From Bacillales bacterium UBA1188 (GTDB taxonomy: Bacteria > Bacillota_I > Bacilli_A > Izemoplasmatales > UBA1188), in NCBI GenBank assembly GCA_002310135.1, contig DBYK01000003.1:24939-88938 (forward strand): a DNA stretch of 64,000 nucleotides, given 5' to 3'. Shown here piece by piece: positions 1 through 9,144 of the stretch (positions within the stretch are counted from its first letter, which is position 1; each line of letters opens with the position of its first letter). Below the pieces are notes generated by a model. The model made no database searches and was not told the origin of the DNA. It was given only the letters and a program-made list of their open reading frames with translations. The translations under genes were made by a program, and so were the position numbers.

Positions 1-317
1 ACTTAATAGACTCAGAAAACGAAAAAATAGAAATAGTTACTAGTGAAGAAAGCTTCAAAGAATACAAATTTGTAAGTGATGAAGAAAAAGGAAAAGGCTT
101 TACTGTAACAAAAGATTATGAAAATCTAGTTTATGTAGTAAGTGGACCTATTATAGATGAATTAATGAGAACATTTAGGCAAGATAATCAAGATTCTGTC
201 CTTAAGTTCGCCAAAACCTTAAAGAAATTAGGAGTTGAAGAAGAACTTAAGATTAATGGTTGCCAAAATGGTGATATAGTAAGAATAGGTAAGATTGATT
301 TTGAATTCAATGATTAG
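1..317 (+). CDS. obg: GTPase Obg, C-terminal end (5' part lies outside the window)
   Basis: The frame is open from the window edge to TAG at 315-317. The tail ...VVSGPIIDELMRTFRQDN..FAKTLKKLGVEEELKINGCQNGDIVRIGKIDFEFND fits the Obg C-terminal (OCT) domain pattern of Firmicutes. Confidence 0.75.
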   Translation, partial: LIDSENEKIEIVTSEESFKEYKFVSDEEKGKGFTVTKDYENLVYVVSGPIIDELMRTFRQDNQDSVLKFAKTLKKLGVEEELKINGCQNGDIVRIGKIDFEFND

Positions 318-325
318 GAGTAATT

Positions 326-880
326 ATGTACGATTATTTAATAGGAATAGTTTCTGAAATACAAAAAGATTCTGTAGTAATAGAAGTAAATAATGTAGGC
401 TATAAAGTATATTCACCAAATCCATATTCATTTGTTTTAGATGACAAAGTTAAAGTTTATACATATTTGCACATAAAAGATGAGATTTTGACACTTTATG
501 GATTTTTATCAATTGAAGAAAAAAAATTATTTATGGATTTAATAAGCGTTTCTGGAATCGGCCCAAAGAGCGCAATAGCGATGCTCGCAACTGGATCAGT
601 CCAAAATATCGCTCAAGCCATAAATAAAGGTGATGCGAAATATTTATGTAAATTTCCTGGTATAGGAATGAAATCAGCTCAACAAATTATTCTAGACTTA
701 AAAGGTAAGGTTGAGGTTAAATCGGGTCATGGAAATTATTTGGTACTTGATGAGGTTAGAGATGCGCTTCAAATTCTCGGCTATTCAGATAAAGATATAA
801 ATAAAGTTTTACCAACTCTAGATTCAACTAAACAAACAAGCGAACTTGTAAGAGAAGCTTTACAAAGAATATTAGGTTAA
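326..880 (+). CDS. ruvA: Holliday junction branch migration protein RuvA
   Basis: 184 aa. It has an OB-fold N-terminus (MYDYLIGIV), two helix-hairpin-helix motifs (SGIGPKSA, FPGIGMKSAQ) and a short domain III. AGGAG lies 6 nt upstream and overlaps the obg stop. Confidence 0.9.
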   Translation: MYDYLIGIVSEIQKDSVVIEVNNVGYKVYSPNPYSFVLDDKVKVYTYLHIKDEILTLYGFLSIEEKKLFMDLISVSGIGPKSAIAMLATGSVQNIAQAINKGDAKYLCKFPGIGMKSAQQIILDLKGKVEVKSGHGNYLVLDEVRDALQILGYSDKDINKVLPTLDSTKQTSELVREALQRILG

Positions 881-887
881 AATTTCT

Positions 888-970
888 AAGTGCTCAAAAT
901 CGGACGTAAATTTAATTTTATGGGTAATTATTCATATTTTGGACGATTAGACCGATTAGAGGCACTTTTG
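888..970 (+). terminator. Long imperfect hairpin plus U-run directly after ruvA (terminator or small structured RNA)
   Basis: Nested pairings seen by eye: AAGTGCTC (888-895) with GAGGCACTT (959-967, one bulge), and AATCGG (898-903) with CCGATT (952-957). TTTT follows. Confidence 0.35.
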
Positions 971-1014
971 TACTATAATTAATAAAACTAACAAGAGTAG
1001 TAATAAATACATAG

Positions 1015-1048
1015 AAAATCACTATAAATAAATGGTGATTTTTTTATT
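1015..1048 (+). terminator. Rho-independent terminator-like hairpin
   Basis: AAATCAC (1016-1022) pairs with GTGATTT (1035-1041) across a 12-nt loop. A run of 7 T follows. Confidence 0.5.
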
Positions 1049-1580
1049 ATCTAAAAATATTAATTTCATACGTTAAGTAACCCATTTTAAATTTATATCC
1101 CAGATTTTAGGCAAAAATAAGAGGCTTTCAATTGATTTACATTTTACACGTTTTACACAACGTAACTATATTTGGCTAGATTTAGCAGTATTTATTTAGT
1201 TAACATAATATACATTATAGGAAGTTATTTGAGTTTTCCATTTTCCTTGTTATAAGTATAAATATCTATATTAAAAACATCAATGAATATGAATATCAAG
1301 CAAAATATGATGTTTAAAAACCTCTAATTATAGTCATATATTATTGTTTGACGCCATTTATCCTTAATATATCATCAGTTATCATATTTCTTCCACTTTC
1401 ACCCCCAAATCTGCCTTATTTTTCATTAGTTGAACCATATTAGGGTAAATTATCCTATTAATATATTTAAATAATTTACACTTAAATTTTACTTTTCCTA
1501 TTTTTACTACTTCTTCGCTTATAATATGTGGTGTAAAAATAAAAAAATATCTTATTTTATTTGACCTAAAAACATATATT

Positions 1581-1609
1581 AATTACTTATTTTTATATTA
1601 TGTTATAAT
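1581..1609 (+). promoter_or_regulatory. Candidate promoter of rarA (extended -10)
   Basis: TGTTATAAT at 1601-1609. The RBS GTGAGGAA at 1616-1623 and ATG at 1629 follow. The -35 region is weak (AATTAC). Confidence 0.45.
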
Positions 1610-1628
1610 TTACTTGTGAGGAATTATT

Positions 1629-2891
1629 ATGAATTATAAACCATTAGCAGAAAAGTTAAGGCCTTCTTCTTTTGATGAAATCATTGGCCAAGACTACTTA
1701 GTTGGCAAAGATGGAATCTTGAGAAAGATGTTAGATAATGACAAATTAATATCAATTATTCTATATGGTAATCCTGGAGTTGGCAAAACTACTATCGCTA
1801 AGATCATAGCTGAAAAGTATTCTTTAGAATCTTATTACTTCAGTGCTTCTTCTGACACAAAGGCAACTTTAAAAGAAATTGTTCAAAGTTCTAAAGGTTA
1901 TCATACTATAATTTTGACAGTTGATGAAATCCACAGAATGAACAAAGACATCCAAGATTATCTTCTTTCATTTATGGAAACAGGGAAAATCATAATCATT
2001 GGCTTAACAACAGTTAATCCATATCTTTCTGTGAACCCTGCGATTAGATCAAGATGTTCAATCTTTAAATTAAATGATCTTGAACCAAATATTATAAAAG
2101 ATTATCTAAAAACTATAGTTTCTAAACTCGAACATGAAAATTTATTGATTGATGAAGATGTTTTTGATTATATTTCTAATAGTTGTGGTAATGAACTTAG
2201 AGTTGCGATAAATAATTTAGAACTTCTAGATTCTGTATCAAAAGATAATGAACATATAGATATAGTTAAAGCTGAAAAAATCATAAAAACACCTAATCTA
2301 AGATTAGATAAAAATGGCGATAATTATTATAATTTATTATCAGCTTTACAAAAATCTATAAGAGGATCAGATGTTCATGCAGCAATATATTACACAGCAA
2401 GATTAGTTGTTCTTGGAGACCTAGAAATTATACTTAGAAGACTAACTGTTTGTGCTTATGAAGATATAGGTTTAGCTAATCCAACAATTGGCGAAAAAAT
2501 GCAAGTTATATCTGAAGCTTGTAGAAATTTAGGCTTTCCTGAAGCGAGAATTCCACTTGCAACTATTGTTATAGAAATGGCTCTAAGTCCTAAGTCAAAT
2601 AGTGCAATTACTGCAATAGATAAAGCTATTTCTGATATTAAAACAAAGGGCCTTGATGATGTCCCAGATCATTTAATTAATATAGAAACTTATACAAAAA
2701 GAGATTCATATATTTATCCACATGATTATAAAAATGCTCTTATTTATCAACAATATTTACCAAATAATTTAGTTGGAACAAAATATTATACTCCAAATCT
2801 AAATTCAAAATATGAAGCACAAATGGCCAAATATTATGAATATTTAGAAGAATATTATAAAAAAGCTAAAGAACAATCTAAATCAAAATGA
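1629..2891 (+). CDS. rarA: Replication-associated recombination protein A (MgsA/RarA AAA+ ATPase)
   Basis: 420 aa. It has Walker A GNPGVGKTT, Walker B VDEIH and the C-terminal MgsA-type helical domain (LQKSIRGSDVHAAIYY, YPHDY). Confidence 0.9.
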   Translation: MNYKPLAEKLRPSSFDEIIGQDYLVGKDGILRKMLDNDKLISIILYGNPGVGKTTIAKIIAEKYSLESYYFSASSDTKATLKEIVQSSKGYHTIILTVDEIHRMNKDIQDYLLSFMETGKIIIIGLTTVNPYLSVNPAIRSRCSIFKLNDLEPNIIKDYLKTIVSKLEHENLLIDEDVFDYISNSCGNELRVAINNLELLDSVSKDNEHIDIVKAEKIIKTPNLRLDKNGDNYYNLLSALQKSIRGSDVHAAIYYTARLVVLGDLEIILRRLTVCAYEDIGLANPTIGEKMQVISEACRNLGFPEARIPLATIVIEMALSPKSNSAITAIDKAISDIKTKGLDDVPDHLINIETYTKRDSYIYPHDYKNALIYQQYLPNNLVGTKYYTPNLNSKYEAQMAKYYEYLEEYYKKAKEQSKSK

Positions 2892-3069
2892 TACACAGAA
2901 GAATGTGTGCATAAAAATATATAGTAAATTCAAATTATTTTCATCACATTTCTATCATATTAAATATATATAATAATCTTTTTATTTTCATATCTCTATC
3001 ATAATATTTAACTTGAAATTTACTTACTTATTTATGAACACATATCATGGAATATCATTATAATATTAA

Positions 3070-3108
3070 TAAAAAAATGGCTCAATTTAAAGTTGAACCA
3101 TTTTTTTA
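3070..3108 (-). terminator. Terminator of the RNase J-like gene (near-palindromic, may also stop rarA transcripts)
   Basis: On the minus strand ATGGTTCAA pairs with TTGAGCCAT (9 bp including one G-U). The loop is 7 nt and a T-run follows. A- and T-runs flank it on both sides. Confidence 0.6.
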
Positions 3109-3120
3109 TTTGTTAAATAT

Positions 3121-4809
3121 TTATACAGAAACATCTATTATTACAGGTATTAAAGTTGGTCTTTTCTTAGTTATTTTTTGTATTTCTTTTGATAATTCTA
3201 TTTTTAAATTTGATCTTAATTCTTTAAAATCAATTTTCTTAAGCCTTAAATGTTCATTAACTATTTCTTTAAACTTCTCATTTATTTTAGGAATAAGAGA
3301 ATCTTGTTCTTCTTTTGGCATAAATCCTTGAGATATTAAATCTATATCTCCACATATTTCTCTTTCTTTTAGATTAATTAATCCTGATATAATAACAAAT
3401 CCTTCTTGTGTTAGAGCTTCCCTTTCTCTTGCGACATAGTCGTTAATGTCTGAGTCTGATTCTTCTCCAAACATAATTTCTTGAGTTTCCATTGAATCAA
3501 AATCATCAATATATTCATTGCCTTCAAATTTTGCGTAAACACCATTTTCTAAATAAATTATCTTATCATAATCAAATCCATAGTCTAAAGCAAGAGATTT
3601 TTGCGCTTTAAGCATTCTATAGTCTCCAGATATAGGAATTATATATTCAGGTGATAATAAACTGTAAAGCAACTTTAAGTCTTCTGCGCCACACATAGGA
3701 TCAGGCATGAGTGAAATATCAAAATCAATTAAGTTTGCATTGTCTAGCCAAATATTATCCCAAGAATTCGCTAAAACTTTTTCAAATTTCTTAGGTGTTT
3801 CAAGCAAGAATACAACATTATCTGTCGGTTTTAAGAAATATTTAGGATCTTGGAATGTTGCGATTCTTTGAAGTGCGAAGAACTGTTCTGTTTCTTCACC
3901 CGCAATTATTACTACAGTATTTGGGCTATTTCTATATTCATCATTTAATTTACTCTTTGTAAGATATGTGCCTTCATATTCTGGTGTATAACCTAAAGAC
4001 ATAGATAATTCAACTAATGATCTCGCTTTAGCGCCTATAATTGTAACTTGTCTTCTTTGATTATCTGCAGCATCAATAACCTCAAGCATTCCAGTTACAT
4101 TATCCGCATTCATAATAATGAATGTTCTGCCCTCATGAGACATAAGTTTGTGAAGGCCATTCTTTAAGTTACCATCAGTTGTGATATGACCTGTTTTTGC
4201 CGCTCCAGTTGATGGACTTAGGAGTATAAATACACCTTCATCAGCAATTCTATTCAATGTTTTAAAATCTGTCCTATAACGTCCTTTTTTGTTTTGATCG
4301 AAATCAAAATCTGGAAGATAAACAATGTTCTTAAAAATAGGATTATCATCTTCTCCAACATTAACTTTAACCGCAATACCCAAAGCATCTGGAACTGAAT
4401 TCGAAACGATGAAGAACTCCATTTTTACATCATCAAAATCTAATGAATGGTTTCTCCCTATATGTTGAAAATTGACATCTTCTTTTTCTTCATCAGAAAG
4501 ATATCTATTTTCTATAGCTTTAATTGTAAATCTTGAAGCATAAAAAGGGACTTTTAAATCTTTTATTATTCTTGGAAAACCACCCATAGCTTTTGGTTTA
4601 AAATGAGTTAAAAATATACCTTGAATTCTATCTTGATTTTCTATTAAATACTGATAACCAGCCATAATTGAATCATATCCAAAGACTTGAGACATAGGTG
4701 TAATTGATCCACAATCAAATACAAATATCTTCTCACCGACTTCAAGAACATACATATTTTTACCGATTTCACCTAAACCACCTAAAGCAAAAAACTTTAT
4801 ATTAGTCAT
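3121..4809 (-). CDS. RNase J family protein with degenerate metal-binding motifs (probable inactive paralogue)
   Basis: 562 aa and collinear with RNase J: N-terminus FALGGLGEIGKN and C-terminal end RPTLIPVIIDV. Where H-x-H-x-D-H is expected it reads THFKPKA. Other His ligand positions are also substituted. Confidence 0.8.
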   Translation of the reverse strand: MTNIKFFALGGLGEIGKNMYVLEVGEKIFVFDCGSITPMSQVFGYDSIMAGYQYLIENQDRIQGIFLTHFKPKAMGGFPRIIKDLKVPFYASRFTIKAIENRYLSDEEKEDVNFQHIGRNHSLDFDDVKMEFFIVSNSVPDALGIAVKVNVGEDDNPIFKNIVYLPDFDFDQNKKGRYRTDFKTLNRIADEGVFILLSPSTGAAKTGHITTDGNLKNGLHKLMSHEGRTFIIMNADNVTGMLEVIDAADNQRRQVTIIGAKARSLVELSMSLGYTPEYEGTYLTKSKLNDEYRNSPNTVVIIAGEETEQFFALQRIATFQDPKYFLKPTDNVVFLLETPKKFEKVLANSWDNIWLDNANLIDFDISLMPDPMCGAEDLKLLYSLLSPEYIIPISGDYRMLKAQKSLALDYGFDYDKIIYLENGVYAKFEGNEYIDDFDSMETQEIMFGEESDSDINDYVAREREALTQEGFVIISGLINLKEREICGDIDLISQGFMPKEEQDSLIPKINEKFKEIVNEHLRLKKIDFKELRSNLKIELSKEIQKITKKRPTLIPVIIDVSV

Positions 4810-4933
4810 AAAATCCTCCTCGAATATTTAATGGCTCTAACATTTTTATTTTATCATAGTTTTTAATAAAAAATATATTAAAAAGTTTTCAAAGTATTTT
4901 TTTTATTGTAAACTAATATGTAAAGGTGATGAA

Positions 4934-5518
4934 ATGTATAATTATCCAATCAAAAGAGCCCCATATCAAGCGAAAAAGATTTCAAATTCAAATAGAGGTA
5001 TGGCATTCGAAGATATGATCAATAGCTCAAACGAACAATATTTATCTAGAGATATAGCGGTTATATATAAAAAACCAACTCCAGTTCAAATTGTCGATGT
5101 AGATTACCCTAAAAGAAGTATGGCAAAGATTACCGAAGCTTATTATAAAACTCCATCTACAACAGACTATAATGGATTATACAAAGGATTTTATATTGAT
5201 TTTGATGCAAAACAATGTAATTCTACTACTTCTTTTCCATTAAGTAATGTTCATGAACATCAAATAAGACATTTAGAAAGAGTAATGAAACATGGAGGAA
5301 TTGGTTTTTTACTAGTTTATTTTAATAAATTAAATGAGATATATCTAATTGATTCAAATCAAATACTTGAATATCATAACAATTCCAAAAATGGAGGAAG
5401 AAAATCTATCTCCATAGAAGATTTCAGATCTAACTGTATATTAATTAAAGAATCATTCCCTATTAGAGTTCCATATCTTAATGCAGTAGATATACTAATT
5501 GATAAACTAAAAAAATGA
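4934..5518 (+). CDS. recU: Holliday junction resolvase RecU
   Basis: 194 aa with the RecU pattern: SNRGMAFE, IAVIYKKPTPVQIV, DYNGLYKGFYIDFDAKQ and HQIRHLE. AAAGGTGA RBS lies upstream. Confidence 0.85.
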   Translation: MYNYPIKRAPYQAKKISNSNRGMAFEDMINSSNEQYLSRDIAVIYKKPTPVQIVDVDYPKRSMAKITEAYYKTPSTTDYNGLYKGFYIDFDAKQCNSTTSFPLSNVHEHQIRHLERVMKHGGIGFLLVYFNKLNEIYLIDSNQILEYHNNSKNGGRKSISIEDFRSNCILIKESFPIRVPYLNAVDILIDKLKK

Positions 5519-5537
5519 GCATTGCTCATTTTTTTAT
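5509..5537. terminator. Bidirectional terminator shared by recU (+) and pdp (-)
   Basis: ATGAGCA (5515-5521) pairs with TGCTCAT (5523-5529). It is flanked by an A-run and a T-run and overlaps both stop codons. Confidence 0.6.
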
Positions 5538-6826
5538 TCAATAATCTTATAGATGATAGGTTTTTCTTCTTTAGCTTCACTACTGAATTTATATGCAAGA
5601 TAAAGCCTATCTATTATATCATCACTCCATTTATCATTTGCGTAGATATATAGTAAGATATCTCCCCTAGTTACATATTCACCAATTTGTTTATTTAGAT
5701 ATAGACCTACATTTGGATCAATGATATCTTCTTTTGTCTCTCTTCCTGCCCCTAGTTCTAATGCAATTAAGCCTAATGATAATGCATCAATTCTTGAAAT
5801 ATAACCTTCTGATTTAGATAAAAGTGGAATTACTTTTTTCGCTTCAATAAAATTATCAAAATTAGTAACTTTTGCACCTTGCATTTGAATCATTTCTATA
5901 AATTTATTGTATGCGCTGAAATCTCTTAACTTTTCTAATGCTAGTTTCATGCCATCTTCAACTGATTTAGTGATATTTGAATAATAGTTCATATATCCAC
6001 AAATAGTTACGCACAAATCTTCTAAATCTTTTGGCCCTTTATTTTGTAAGCAATTAACTGCATCTATTACTTCAATCCTATTTCCTATTCCTTTACCCAA
6101 AGGATGTTCCATATCAGTTATAAAACAGATAACTTTCTTATCAAATTTATGAGCTATATTTATCATAGCTTCACTTAGTTTTATCGCATCTTCTGTAGTT
6201 TTCATAAATGCACCTGAGCCATATTTCACATCTAAGCATATAACATCGGCTCCAGATGCGATTTTTTTGCTCATAATCGAAGATGTGATAAGAGGTAATG
6301 AATTAACTGTCTGTGTAACATCTCTTAAAGCATAGAGCTTTTTATCGGCTGGGACAAGATTTTTAGTTTGACCTGCAATAGCGATATGTATCTTATTAAT
6401 TTGATCAGTGAACTTTTCATCACTTAAATTAGTATTTAAACCTGGAATACTTTCAAGTTTATCAATTGTACCACCGGTATGTCCAAGACCTCTTCCTGAT
6501 AATTTAGCCATAATATTTCCACATGATGCAGCAAGAGGGCCTAAAACTAAACTAGTCTTATCGCCAACACCTCCAGTTGAATGTTTATCAACTTTAATTC
6601 CATCGATAAAAGAGAGATCTATTACATCTCCACTTTCAATCATAGCTTTAGTTAAAAAGTATGTCTCTTTTTCACTTAAGCCATTGAATCTAACACACAT
6701 CAACCAACTAGACATCTGATAATCAGGAATTTGATTATTTGTGTATTCCTGAATTAAAAAAGATATTTCTTCTTCTGTTAATTCAATTTTATTAAATGTT
6801 TTTTCAATAATATCAGTTACTTTCAT
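5534..6826 (-). CDS. pdp: Pyrimidine-nucleoside phosphorylase
   Basis: 430 aa. It has KHSTGGVGDK, SGRGLGHTGGTIDK and the C-terminal alpha/beta domain typical of Pdp/thymidine phosphorylase. Confidence 0.9.
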   Translation of the reverse strand: MKVTDIIEKTFNKIELTEEEISFLIQEYTNNQIPDYQMSSWLMCVRFNGLSEKETYFLTKAMIESGDVIDLSFIDGIKVDKHSTGGVGDKTSLVLGPLAASCGNIMAKLSGRGLGHTGGTIDKLESIPGLNTNLSDEKFTDQINKIHIAIAGQTKNLVPADKKLYALRDVTQTVNSLPLITSSIMSKKIASGADVICLDVKYGSGAFMKTTEDAIKLSEAMINIAHKFDKKVICFITDMEHPLGKGIGNRIEVIDAVNCLQNKGPKDLEDLCVTICGYMNYYSNITKSVEDGMKLALEKLRDFSAYNKFIEMIQMQGAKVTNFDNFIEAKKVIPLLSKSEGYISRIDALSLGLIALELGAGRETKEDIIDPNVGLYLNKQIGEYVTRGDILLYIYANDKWSDDIIDRLYLAYKFSSEAKEEKPIIYKIIE

Positions 6827-7814
6827 TTTCTACCTTATCATTTAAAAACTTTAACTTTTTGATTAATAATGGATATACATAAATACCAACAATTACCATA
6901 GCAAAATACCTAATCATATCACATATAGAACATATGAATGTTCCTTCTTCAAAAGCCCAACTATAAGTTAGTTTTAAAGAATAACGAATTCCAAGAAGTA
7001 AAACAAAACCAATTACAAATCTTAATATGTTTTTCCAAATAGATTTTGTATAACTAAAGTTAACATATTTAGATTCTAAATAACTTCCAAGAACGAAACC
7101 TATAGTAGATCCATATACAGAGAATAAATCTTTAGGATTATCACTATAAATTGGAGATATAAATGTCAAAATTCCAAATATACAAATAAATATAATATCT
7201 ACAACCATTGATTCATTAGTCTTTTTCTTTAGAAAGAAATAAAGAGATATGAATCCTAGACCAATTAAATAACCAGTTAGAACATCAGTCATGAAATGAA
7301 CACCTAAAGACATTCTTGAAATCATTACAAGTAAGCATAAAATAGTAGATATAATCCAATATTTCTTCTTCTTTAATTGGTATGCGAATGAATTATAGAA
7401 TGAAGATGCAGTAGTGGAGTGACCTGATGGAAATGATGATGAACTAGAAGCCCAATATTCGCCAGTTTCTCCACTAATTTTATAATATTCACCATCTAAA
7501 TTTTTAGATAATATACTCTTATCTCTACATTCTATTGTATCTGGAGACATTTGGAATGGCCTAAGTCTATTAAACATGCTTTTAACAGAATTAGTTAAAA
7601 GGAGTGAGAAAAATGTTGCGATAGCTACTTTTTTTGATATCTCCTTATTGACGCACCAATAAAGCAAGCATAATACAATCATTATTGCAGTTTCAGTCCC
7701 TAAGAATGTAATCCCTTTAAATAATGTTTCTAGAAAACTATTTTCAGTTAATTTGTTGAAAAATTCAATTATTGAAATGTCAAAATCCCATTTCATTAAA
7801 ACTAAAAAATTCAT
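6813..7814 (-). CDS. PAP2-family membrane phosphatase with extra C-terminal helices
   Basis: 333 aa. All three PAP2 motifs are intact: K-x6-RP (KSMFNRLRP), PSGH (FPSGHSTTA) and SR-x5-H-x3-D (SRMSLGVHFMTD). It has multiple transmembrane segments. Confidence 0.75.
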   Translation of the reverse strand: MNFLVLMKWDFDISIIEFFNKLTENSFLETLFKGITFLGTETAIMIVLCLLYWCVNKEISKKVAIATFFSLLLTNSVKSMFNRLRPFQMSPDTIECRDKSILSKNLDGEYYKISGETGEYWASSSSSFPSGHSTTASSFYNSFAYQLKKKKYWIISTILCLLVMISRMSLGVHFMTDVLTGYLIGLGFISLYFFLKKKTNESMVVDIIFICIFGILTFISPIYSDNPKDLFSVYGSTIGFVLGSYLESKYVNFSYTKSIWKNILRFVIGFVLLLGIRYSLKLTYSWAFEEGTFICSICDMIRYFAMVIVGIYVYPLLIKKLKFLNDKVENESN

Positions 7815-8278
7815 TATAATCTCCTATATTCTCTAAAATGTAATATTCCACTAATATTTTCATTAACCAATTTAAAATTGGATAAATCAATATTTAGATA
7901 TGTATCTCCTTCATGATCAGCATCAATCATTGTTATGAATAGTCTATCAGCTATTTTATAAGTTAATTCTATGATGCCTTTTCCACCTATTATAAATAAA
8001 TCTTCGTCTTTATGTTCATCTAAGTATTTGAATATATCATGTGTAACTTCAACGCCTTCAAATGTATAATCAGTCAAAGTTGCAATAACATTAGTTCTAT
8101 TAGGTAGAGGTTTATTATTTCTCGAAACTATTGATTTAAATGTTTCTTCACCCATTATAACTTTTTTATTCAATGTTTTTTCTTTAAAATATTGTAAGTC
8201 TTCTTTGTAATTCCAAGGAAGACTATTTTTATTTCCAAATAAATTATTTCTATCTATGGCAAATATTACGGATATCAT
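7814..8278 (-). CDS. folA: Dihydrofolate reductase
   Basis: 154 aa with SVIFAIDRNNLFGNKNSLPW, VIMGEETF and LFIIGGKG. Its start overlaps the thyA stop by 1 nt. Confidence 0.85.
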   Translation of the reverse strand: MISVIFAIDRNNLFGNKNSLPWNYKEDLQYFKEKTLNKKVIMGEETFKSIVSRNNKPLPNRTNVIATLTDYTFEGVEVTHDIFKYLDEHKDEDLFIIGGKGIIELTYKIADRLFITMIDADHEGDTYLNIDLSNFKLVNENISGILHFREYRRL

Positions 8279-9144
8279 TAAACTGCAACCTCACCTTTAA
8301 TCTTAGAATGACATTTATAATTGATTAGCTCGAAGTCTTCATATTCAAAGTCTTCAATATTAGTTGTATCTTTTTTAATCAACATTTCTGGAAGCGGATA
8401 TGGTTCTCTTTCAAGTTGAGTTTTAACTTGATCAAGATGATTCTTATATATGTGAGCGTCACCAATTGTGTGAACAAAAACTCCAGGTTTTAATCCAGTT
8501 ACCTTTGCAACCATCATTAGTAATAGAGAATATGACGCAATATTAAAAGGAATTCCTAGGAATATATCGCCACTTCTTTGATATAATTGGAGAGATAATT
8601 TCCCATCAGCAACATAAAATTGATATAAAGAATGGCAAGGAGGAAGAGCCATAAATGGAACTTCTTTAGGGTTCCAACTTGATACTATTAATCTCCTAGA
8701 ATCTGGGTTATTTTTAATCTCTTCAATGATGCCCATTAGTTGGTCAACACCATTAAAATTACGCCATTGTTTTCCATAAACTGGACCTAAATTTCCCCAT
8801 TTTTTTGCAAATTCATTATCGTTTTTAATTAGTTCTTTGAACTCATCCATTGATTCGCCGTTAAATTCATTAGATTCTTTAAAACTTTTATAAGGCCAAT
8901 CATTCCAGATGGATACATTGTGATCTACTAAATATTTAATATTAGTATCGCCCTTAATGAACCATAATAGCTCATAGATTATACTTTTTAGATGAACTTT
9001 CTTTGTAGTAACAAGAGGAAAACCTTCACTTAAATCAAATCTCATTTGATATCCAAAATATGAAATTGTTCCTGTGCCTGTTCTATCAGTTTTTTCAGTT
9101 CCTTTTTCTAAGACAGTTCTAATTAAATCTAAATATTGTTGCAT
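8278..9144 (-). CDS. thyA: Thymidylate synthase
   Basis: 288 aa with [17 protein letters not shown] and the catalytic LPPCH motif, plus DAHIY. Confidence 0.95.

Follow-up and report, generated by a model that had tools for sequence, protein, structure and literature searches.

A second RNase J paralogue in the Izemoplasmatales with nearly all catalytic residues replaced is kept under strong purifying selection

It is a matter of debate whether RNase J2 is an enzyme or supports RNase J1 as a cofactor without catalysis of its own, and the evidence brought to it so far has come from point mutants of Staphylococcus aureus and Bacillus subtilis. In S. aureus the deletion of J2 has a phenotype and a double mutant of its active site has none, the active site being dispensable in vivo, and the authors proposed a structural role for J2 within a complex of J1 and J2 (PMC3937233). 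The S. aureus protein binds one Mn via H76, H78, H80, H144 and E166 and has measurable nuclease activity; the single Mn is mainly structural, changes to single ligands sometimes leave activity in place and the change H78A raised it (PMC11815676). The J2 of S. epidermidis is mostly a monomer in vitro (PMC7864078). In B. subtilis J2 has been described as a specificity cofactor of J1 that stimulates it on a subset of mRNAs, an effect that is independent of H76 (H76A has no effect) and dependent on R544, and a parallel with CPSF73 and CPSF100 has been drawn for the J1/J2 pair (bioRxiv 10.64898/2026.05.27.728192). A review of the Mollicutes treats both RNase J paralogues as enzymes (PMC4014445).

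The gene described here, which we refer to as J2x, lies in a window of 64,000 nucleotides from the genome of Bacillales bacterium UBA1188, an uncultured rumen bacterium of the order Izemoplasmatales, the source genome being a MAG-type assembly of 1.13 Mb in 7 contigs that is 84% complete. The ORF begins with ATG and ends with TAA, and it stands by itself, there being no other gene between rarA/mgsA and recU (Table 1). It was originally predicted from the sequence of the window that the gene has an RBS and a terminator; the former is present as GAGGAGG and the latter is a reasonable call, as the hairpin beyond the stop codon has a folding energy of -18.6 kcal/mol (z = -6.7) and on direct folding none of 200 shuffled sequences was equally stable. 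A consensus terminator scan gave no match, its G+C criterion being too strict for this hairpin, and the A-run and U-run that flank it make it a possible candidate for a bidirectional terminator. An Rfam scan of positions 1-9000 of the window returned zero matches.

Table 1. Features of the J2x locus, with positions given on the window and residues numbered on J2x
Feature	Position	Strand	Basis or remark
J2x gene (putatively dead RNase J2-type paralogue), 562 aa	3121..4809 incl. stop codon	-	ORF, domain matches, AF2 model
Shine-Dalgarno GAGGAGG	4815..4821	-	5 nt upstream of J2x ATG, read from sequence
Hairpin then U7, putative intrinsic terminator	3068..3110	-	begins 10 nt past J2x stop
recU	4934..5518	+	divergent neighbour of J2x; synteny anchor common to the order's second RNase J paralogue
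rarA/mgsA	1629..2891	+	convergent neighbour of J2x; second synteny anchor
Motif II remnant (HxHxDH to H69-F70-K71-P72-K73-A74)	4588..4605	-	alignment
N137, motif III His position (B. subtilis H142)	4399..4401	-	clade N/S/T/G/A
D167 (B. subtilis D164), sole canonical metal ligand kept	4309..4311	-	invariant, 14/14 in clade
P199, beta-CASP motif A acid (B. subtilis D195)	4213..4215	-	clade P 12, A 2
HxSGH loop remnant M368-P-D-P-M372 (5'-phosphate pocket and motif B His)	3694..3708	-	alignment
S394, motif C His position (B. subtilis H390)	3628..3630	-	variable in clade
D454 (B. subtilis D449), inter-subunit salt bridge	3448..3450	-	invariant in clade
K549 (B. subtilis R544), inter-subunit salt bridge	3163..3165	-	invariant Lys in clade

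That J2x is a full-length homologue of RNase J, as had been predicted, is borne out by HMM alignments, Pfam domains and the match in fold. Alignments to the NCBIfam RNase J HMMs run end to end over residues 4-559 of 562, and the domain order is collinear with that of RNase J from one end to the other, with MBL, beta-CASP insertion, MBL, linker and C-terminal domain in turn. The scores are 320 bits for RNase J1 (NF047419) against a curated cut-off of 820, and 301 bits for TIGR00649 against a curated cut-off of 400, so that J2x lies below the family threshold. In Pfam, J2x matches RNase_J_C (1.7e-16) and RNase_J_b_CASP (4e-10), has no match to Lactamase_B and scores under the cut-off for RMMBL. 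The best match of J2x in an HMMER search of the PDB is RNase J2 of S. epidermidis (2e-80, full length), followed by the J1 of B. subtilis (8e-69) and that of S. epidermidis (4e-61), both of which align end to end. An AF2 model of J2x made with 20 clade sequences has a pLDDT of 82 and a pTM of 0.72, and when it is used as a Foldseek query RNase J1 and J2 structures come top, with a TM of 0.88-0.89 (target-normalised) and an rmsd of ~3 A to the J2 catalytic core; IntS11 and CPSF73 are matched at E ~1e-17 to 1e-19. The J2 of S. aureus and S. epidermidis (RnjB; PDB 6K6W, 8YYK) is the best match to J2x both in sequence and in the structure of the core.

To map the residues of the active site, 53 sequences, among them 14 of the J2x clade, were aligned with MAFFT and numbered after B. 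subtilis J1 (3ZQ4), and only one of the eight canonical catalytic or metal-binding residues is conserved in that clade, namely D167. Within the former motif II, H69 stands at the position of B. subtilis H74 and is H, R, Q, N or K across the clade, K71 stands at that of H76 and is K, R, G or S, K73 at that of D78 is K or R without exception, and A74 at that of H79 is variable; the intervening F70 is invariant. The two-metal MBL motifs of J2x have therefore been reduced to HFKPKA for motif II, an Asn for the His of motif III and the Asp of motif IV, which alone is kept. None of the beta-CASP motifs A, B and C remains, the residues at their key positions being P199, M372 and S394, and the loop formed in B. 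subtilis by H364, S366, G367 and H368 is replaced in the clade, with M368, D370, P371 and M372 at the corresponding positions of J2x.

Every one of the ligand substitutions that were originally predicted holds in this alignment, and aligning J2x with J1 and J2 sequences restores no His or Asp at the canonical ligand positions beyond H69 and D167. The change of the motif A acid and the full replacement of the HxSGH 5'-phosphate loop were missing from the earlier list. Ligands hidden by misalignment were considered and can be ruled out, as three independent alignments agree, namely that of HMMER to PDB sequences and those of MAFFT with 21 and with 53 sequences. Every motif of J2x is flanked by conserved blocks that serve as anchors, these being GIFLTH, VPD, PDFxFD, EDLKLL and PIxGDY. 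There are also features specific to the J2x clade, which include an invariant PKKYEK, W350 and F363-D364 and an insertion of 8-11 residues before D167.

From its residues it would seem that J2x has lost catalysis, and a salt bridge between K/R73 and the invariant D167 may substitute for the structural metal. The same two residues are those on which J2x might still work as an enzyme, that is as a metal-independent or reorganised nuclease or hydrolase using residues such as D167, K73 and D396, whether kept or new. D167 and K/R73 are conserved throughout the clade; in S. aureus J2 the counterpart of D167 is E166, on which J2 activity depends most, and that of K/R73 is H80, for which a role as proton donor has been proposed (PMC11815676). 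However, positions 69, 71, 74, 137, 372 and 394 of the pocket vary freely, as those of an active site would not be expected to do, neither the motif A acid nor the phosphate-binding loop is present any longer and there is no match to the Lactamase_B profile. Most of the former ligand positions drift freely within the clade, which speaks against a new catalytic centre having arisen at that site, and we consider it improbable that J2x is an enzyme of this kind.

Set beside the best studied J2 proteins, J2x is like that of the staphylococci in being a second paralogue found next to an active J1, and the staphylococcal protein is itself degenerate, with a motif II that reads HGHEHA and a replaced motif C His. 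It differs in holding its Mn and a measurable activity, whereas in J2x only the equivalent of E166 (D167) is conserved at the Mn site, the equivalent of H76 varies and those of H78, H80 and H144 are replaced; J2x is additionally without the motif A acid and the motif B His. With the J2 of B. subtilis, for which a non-catalytic action via R544 has been proposed, J2x shares the basic residue at that position (K549) and the acidic one at D449 (D454). The B. subtilis protein differs in that it retains a recognisable catalytic site, and the two systems differ again in J1, where the partner residues are missing from the genus studied here, with Gly at the position of D449 and Q, H or L at that of R544.

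The closest relative of J2x comes from independent rumen metagenomes and is 97.5% identical to it in amino acid sequence, the two genes being separated by 122 synonymous and 18 non-synonymous differences (dN 0.012, dS 0.49, dN/dS 0.025). Neighbouring genes compared between the same pair of genomes have dN/dS values of 0.022 (dhfr), 0.025 (thyA), 0.031 (rarA), 0.052 (pynp), 0.053 (ruvA), 0.057 (recU) and 0.081 (PAP2), which places J2x at the level of thyA, close to dhfr and under recU, ruvA and pynp. J2x is under strong purifying selection, as strict as that on housekeeping genes. Identity within the clade is 52-53% for the former MBL domain, 59% for the beta-CASP domain, 69% for the linker and 62% for the C-terminal domain, and ~100 columns are invariant across 20 clade sequences. 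The gene is intact in five genomes of the genus and truncated by contig ends in two others, and further intact ORFs are found in ~20 metagenomic clusters of 50-98% identity from independent samples.

These observations bear on whether J2x is a decaying gene or recent pseudogene, or else an artefact of annotation or assembly. Its scores under the curated RNase J cut-offs and the fragmented, incomplete nature of the MAG-type assembly would be in keeping with such an origin, but the pseudogene reading is refuted by the low dN/dS and by conservation, full-length ORFs having been recovered from separate genomes and from clusters of independent samples, and the RBS and putative terminator also speak against it. 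The probability that remains for decay or artefact is negligible, and in this the original prediction was right. As the catalytic residues have been lost and J2x is nevertheless tightly constrained, the function under selection would be something other than metal-dependent RNA cleavage.

An intact paralogue had been suggested as something to look for in the rest of the genome, and it is present: contig 3 of the source genome encodes an RNase J1 with all motifs, which scores 565 bits against TIGR00649 and matches B. subtilis J1 at 3e-167. J1 accompanies the gene in all seven genomes of the genus that carry J2x. The order was sampled through 61 genomes from 3 families and 22 genera, and 59 of the 60 other genomes have a match to the J2x query, most of them having two RNase J paralogues. 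The J1-type paralogue keeps eight of eight ligands in each of the 16 genomes of the order that were examined. The ordinary second paralogue of the order, whose hosts are labelled Acholeplasmataceae, Izemoplasmatales or Mycoplasmatota in NCBI, keeps five to seven of the eight; H74, H76, H142, a Glu in motif A and H368 are retained, H390 is always gone and D78 and H79 are often gone, commonly in favour of Lys-Ala. D164 is kept in nine of ten of the ordinary second paralogues examined and is Asn in that of the sister genus (G009), a protein that is intermediate in its ligands (D78N, D164N, H390C). J2x and the ordinary second paralogue have in common the Lys at D78, a GH-T-D after motif A and a C-terminus of the form IIDxS.

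In the source genus the J2x form occupies the place of the second paralogue. Its identity is 51-63% among members of the genus and 30-36% to the second paralogue elsewhere in the order, and in a maximum likelihood tree the J2x clade is monophyletic (100/100) and nested within the clade of second paralogues of the order, on a stem of 1.52 substitutions/site compared with 0.57 for the J1 of the same genus. Across the order both the J2x form and the ordinary second paralogue adjoin recU and often rarA too, and this shared recU-rnj-rarA slot makes them positional orthologues. J2x is thus, by position and by phylogeny, the orthologue of the order's second RNase J paralogue, which is itself degenerate in part, and the description of it as an extreme version of RNase J2, which had been put forward on sequence grounds, is accurate in this sense. 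The J2 of S. epidermidis falls outside the second-paralogue group of the order in the tree, and as it groups apart the tree gives no support to an orthology of J2x with the RnjB of Bacillales and Staphylococcus.

The J2x family is narrow. When 1.84 billion representative proteins were searched exhaustively with HMMER, the form came up only as one full-length 50%-identity cluster and two fragments, the next match being at 32% identity, and there were no intermediates between the J2x clade and the ordinary second paralogues. A scan of genome contigs with back-translated patterns recovered one clade member, from a yak-rumen MAG (isolate RGIG10250); as these patterns are common to the whole family, its other matches were to generic RNase J of Bacillaceae.

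Taking these lines of evidence together, we think it somewhat more probable than the reverse that J2x is an RNase J2-type second paralogue that has turned into a pseudo-nuclease and is likely to act through binding beside J1. J2x keeps the whole RNase J fold, comprising the MBL domain, the beta-CASP domain, the linker and the C-terminal oligomerisation domain, and would be unable to bind either the catalytic metals or a 5'-phosphate. RNA would be cleaved by the intact RNase J1, whose gene is elsewhere in the genome, with J2x most likely serving the RNase J machinery as a subunit without catalysis or as a specificity factor. Precedent for a role in binding may be seen in the proposals made for the J2 of S. 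aureus and B. subtilis and in CPSF100 and IntS9 beside CPSF73 and IntS11, and J2x may associate physically with J1. The role of scaffold or regulatory partner that was originally suggested for J2x is likewise an inference; it fits with published work in which S. aureus (PMC3937233) and B. subtilis (bioRxiv 10.64898/2026.05.27.728192) can do without the active site of J2, and is complicated because the J1 of this lineage is without the conserved residues of the dimer salt bridge.

The loss of these residues from J1 is confined to part of the order. The J1 of the genus has Gly and Q, H or L at the D449 and R544 positions as given above, that of the sister genus has Asn and His, and J1 in the other families of the order keeps D or E and R. 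Among 248 RNase J representatives the D449 position is D or E in 203 and the R544 position is R or K in 210. Furthermore the C-terminal domain of the J1 of the genus has only 28% identity to the other J1s of the order. As this J1 has neither salt-bridge residue the classical J1-J2 contact of B. subtilis cannot form, and it would follow from the residues at the two positions that either J1 and J2x meet at a remodelled interface, or the pair has come apart and J2x acts alone, for example as a homodimer. It is for this reason that a mechanism with J1 as the partner is held with moderate confidence.

The second of these options leads to a different view of J2x, as an autonomous and non-catalytic protein, probably a homodimer, that would bind RNA or protect 5' ends or would serve as a scaffold for decay factors such as RNase Y, which is encoded in the source genome. 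Its premise is that a change in the dimer interface of J1, at the root of the family, released the second paralogue. J2x has both of the salt-bridge residues that its J1 has lost, and a homodimer of J2x could form both salt bridges; the very long stem branch of the clade suggests a change in function, and the invariant motifs and the insertion before D167 that are specific to the clade would be in keeping with one. However, the 5'-phosphate pocket of J2x is destroyed, its acidic pI of ~5.0, which is below that of J1 and of other second paralogues, gives no hint of stronger RNA binding, every J2 function that has been studied experimentally runs via J1 and J2x never occurs without J1 among the sampled genomes. 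Autonomous action of this kind would seem possible but rather unlikely, and that J1 and J2x are uncoupled, with J2x an autonomous homodimeric regulator or scaffold of RNA decay that is not catalytic, we would regard as a shade less likely again. If true, the uncoupled J2x would represent a novel functional class that descends from RNase J, and the degenerate paralogues that arose independently in Spiroplasma, Phytoplasma and further organisms with reduced genomes could be convergent examples of it.

Returning to J2x as a pseudo-nuclease beside J1, a close parallel is with CPSF100 and IntS9, which have the same superfamily fold and the same logic of a dead paralogue next to an active one. Like them J2x is, to judge by its residues, an inactive paralogue, it is under purifying selection and an intact J1 is encoded in the same genome. 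The eukaryotic CPSF and IntS pairs differ in having arisen from independent duplications, and their heterodimerisation via the C-terminal domains has been shown experimentally. J2x is a new, extreme variant of the known RNase J2-type paralogue and the natural end point of the trend of J2 toward non-catalytic action.

Similar losses can be seen elsewhere, with 15 of 248 retrieved RNase J homologues keeping at most three of the eight ligands. Strongly degenerate examples are found in a Spiroplasma endosymbiont (WP_342252449.1), in Ca. Phytoplasma pruni (MCQ9618866.1) and in unnamed metagenomic clusters; they are full length, annotated simply as 'ribonuclease J' and 24-31% identical to J2x. In a 77-sequence tree the degenerate homologues fall in at least 6 separate places, none of them sister to the J2x clade, and they therefore represent independent losses. 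The equivalents of D449 and R544 are kept in most of them. Judged by the residues at these sites, it is a recurrent outcome that an RNase J paralogue is retained although its catalytic site has gone altogether, and a full-text literature search found no description of it.

J2x is in effect a natural experiment on the debate over RNase J2, as it is a protein of the J2 lineage from which nearly all the catalytic residues have gone and which is under constraint like that on thymidylate synthase. There is a caution here for annotation, as pipelines list among the RNases what is apparently not an enzyme. The residues that are conserved across the degenerate paralogues, including the equivalents of D449 and R544, provide a map of what may be the non-catalytic functional surface, and the recurrence of such paralogues in several lineages with reduced genomes points to a general bacterial counterpart of CPSF100 and IntS9.

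In the family to which the UBA1188 genome belongs, the intact RNase J1 has itself lost both of the conserved inter-subunit salt-bridge residues, the equivalent of B. subtilis D449 being Gly or Asn and that of R544 being Q, H or L in the J1 genes compared (the own-genome copy in the table, L098, L099-L102 and L109). The C-terminal domain of these proteins is also unusually divergent, sharing 28% identity with the J1s of the rest of the order, which are 53% identical to one another.

In the sister genus (L097, G009) the second RNase J paralogue sits on a long terminal branch and is in an intermediate state, carrying D78N, D164N and H390C (B. subtilis J1 numbering) with the other His residues kept, and the degeneration of this paralogue may have started at the base of the family. 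Residues 1-462 of the dead paralogue, J2x, are matched in G015, and the start of the same contig holds an inverted fragment matching residues 456-533 with one TAA inside, which is probably an assembly artefact at the contig end. Neither RNase J type was found at E <= 1e-10 in G012, a genome of the same genus as UBA1188 that is 82% complete, and this is probably due to its incompleteness.

A low-complexity, AT-rich ORF of 94 aa, almost certainly not a gene, runs antisense to the J2x gene at its 3' end. At the window locus ruvA is not followed by ruvB, and the 750-bp stretch separating ruvA from rarA has neither an ORF of at least 35 aa nor an Rfam match; the gap is also present in the closest relative.

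Coordinates of the features discussed
Feature	Location	Positions	Strand
ruvA-rarA gap	window	881-1628	
ruvA-rarA gap, closest relative	L116	9180-9929	
Antisense ORF	window	3047-3331	+
Locus with the J2x match and the inverted fragment	L090 (G015 contig 23)	1-2181	- (match to residues 1-462)
Intact J1, own genome	L001 (contig 3)	1480-3171	

At most three of the eight catalytic or metal-binding residues are kept in 15 of the 248 RNase J homologues retrieved (P0133, P0178, P0207, P0209, P0211, P0222, P0241 and P0245 among others), including proteins annotated as ribonuclease J from a Spiroplasma endosymbiont (WP_342252449.1) and Ca. Phytoplasma pruni (MCQ9618866.1). As these ligand-poor homologues are scattered over the tree, dead RNase J paralogues seem to have arisen repeatedly.
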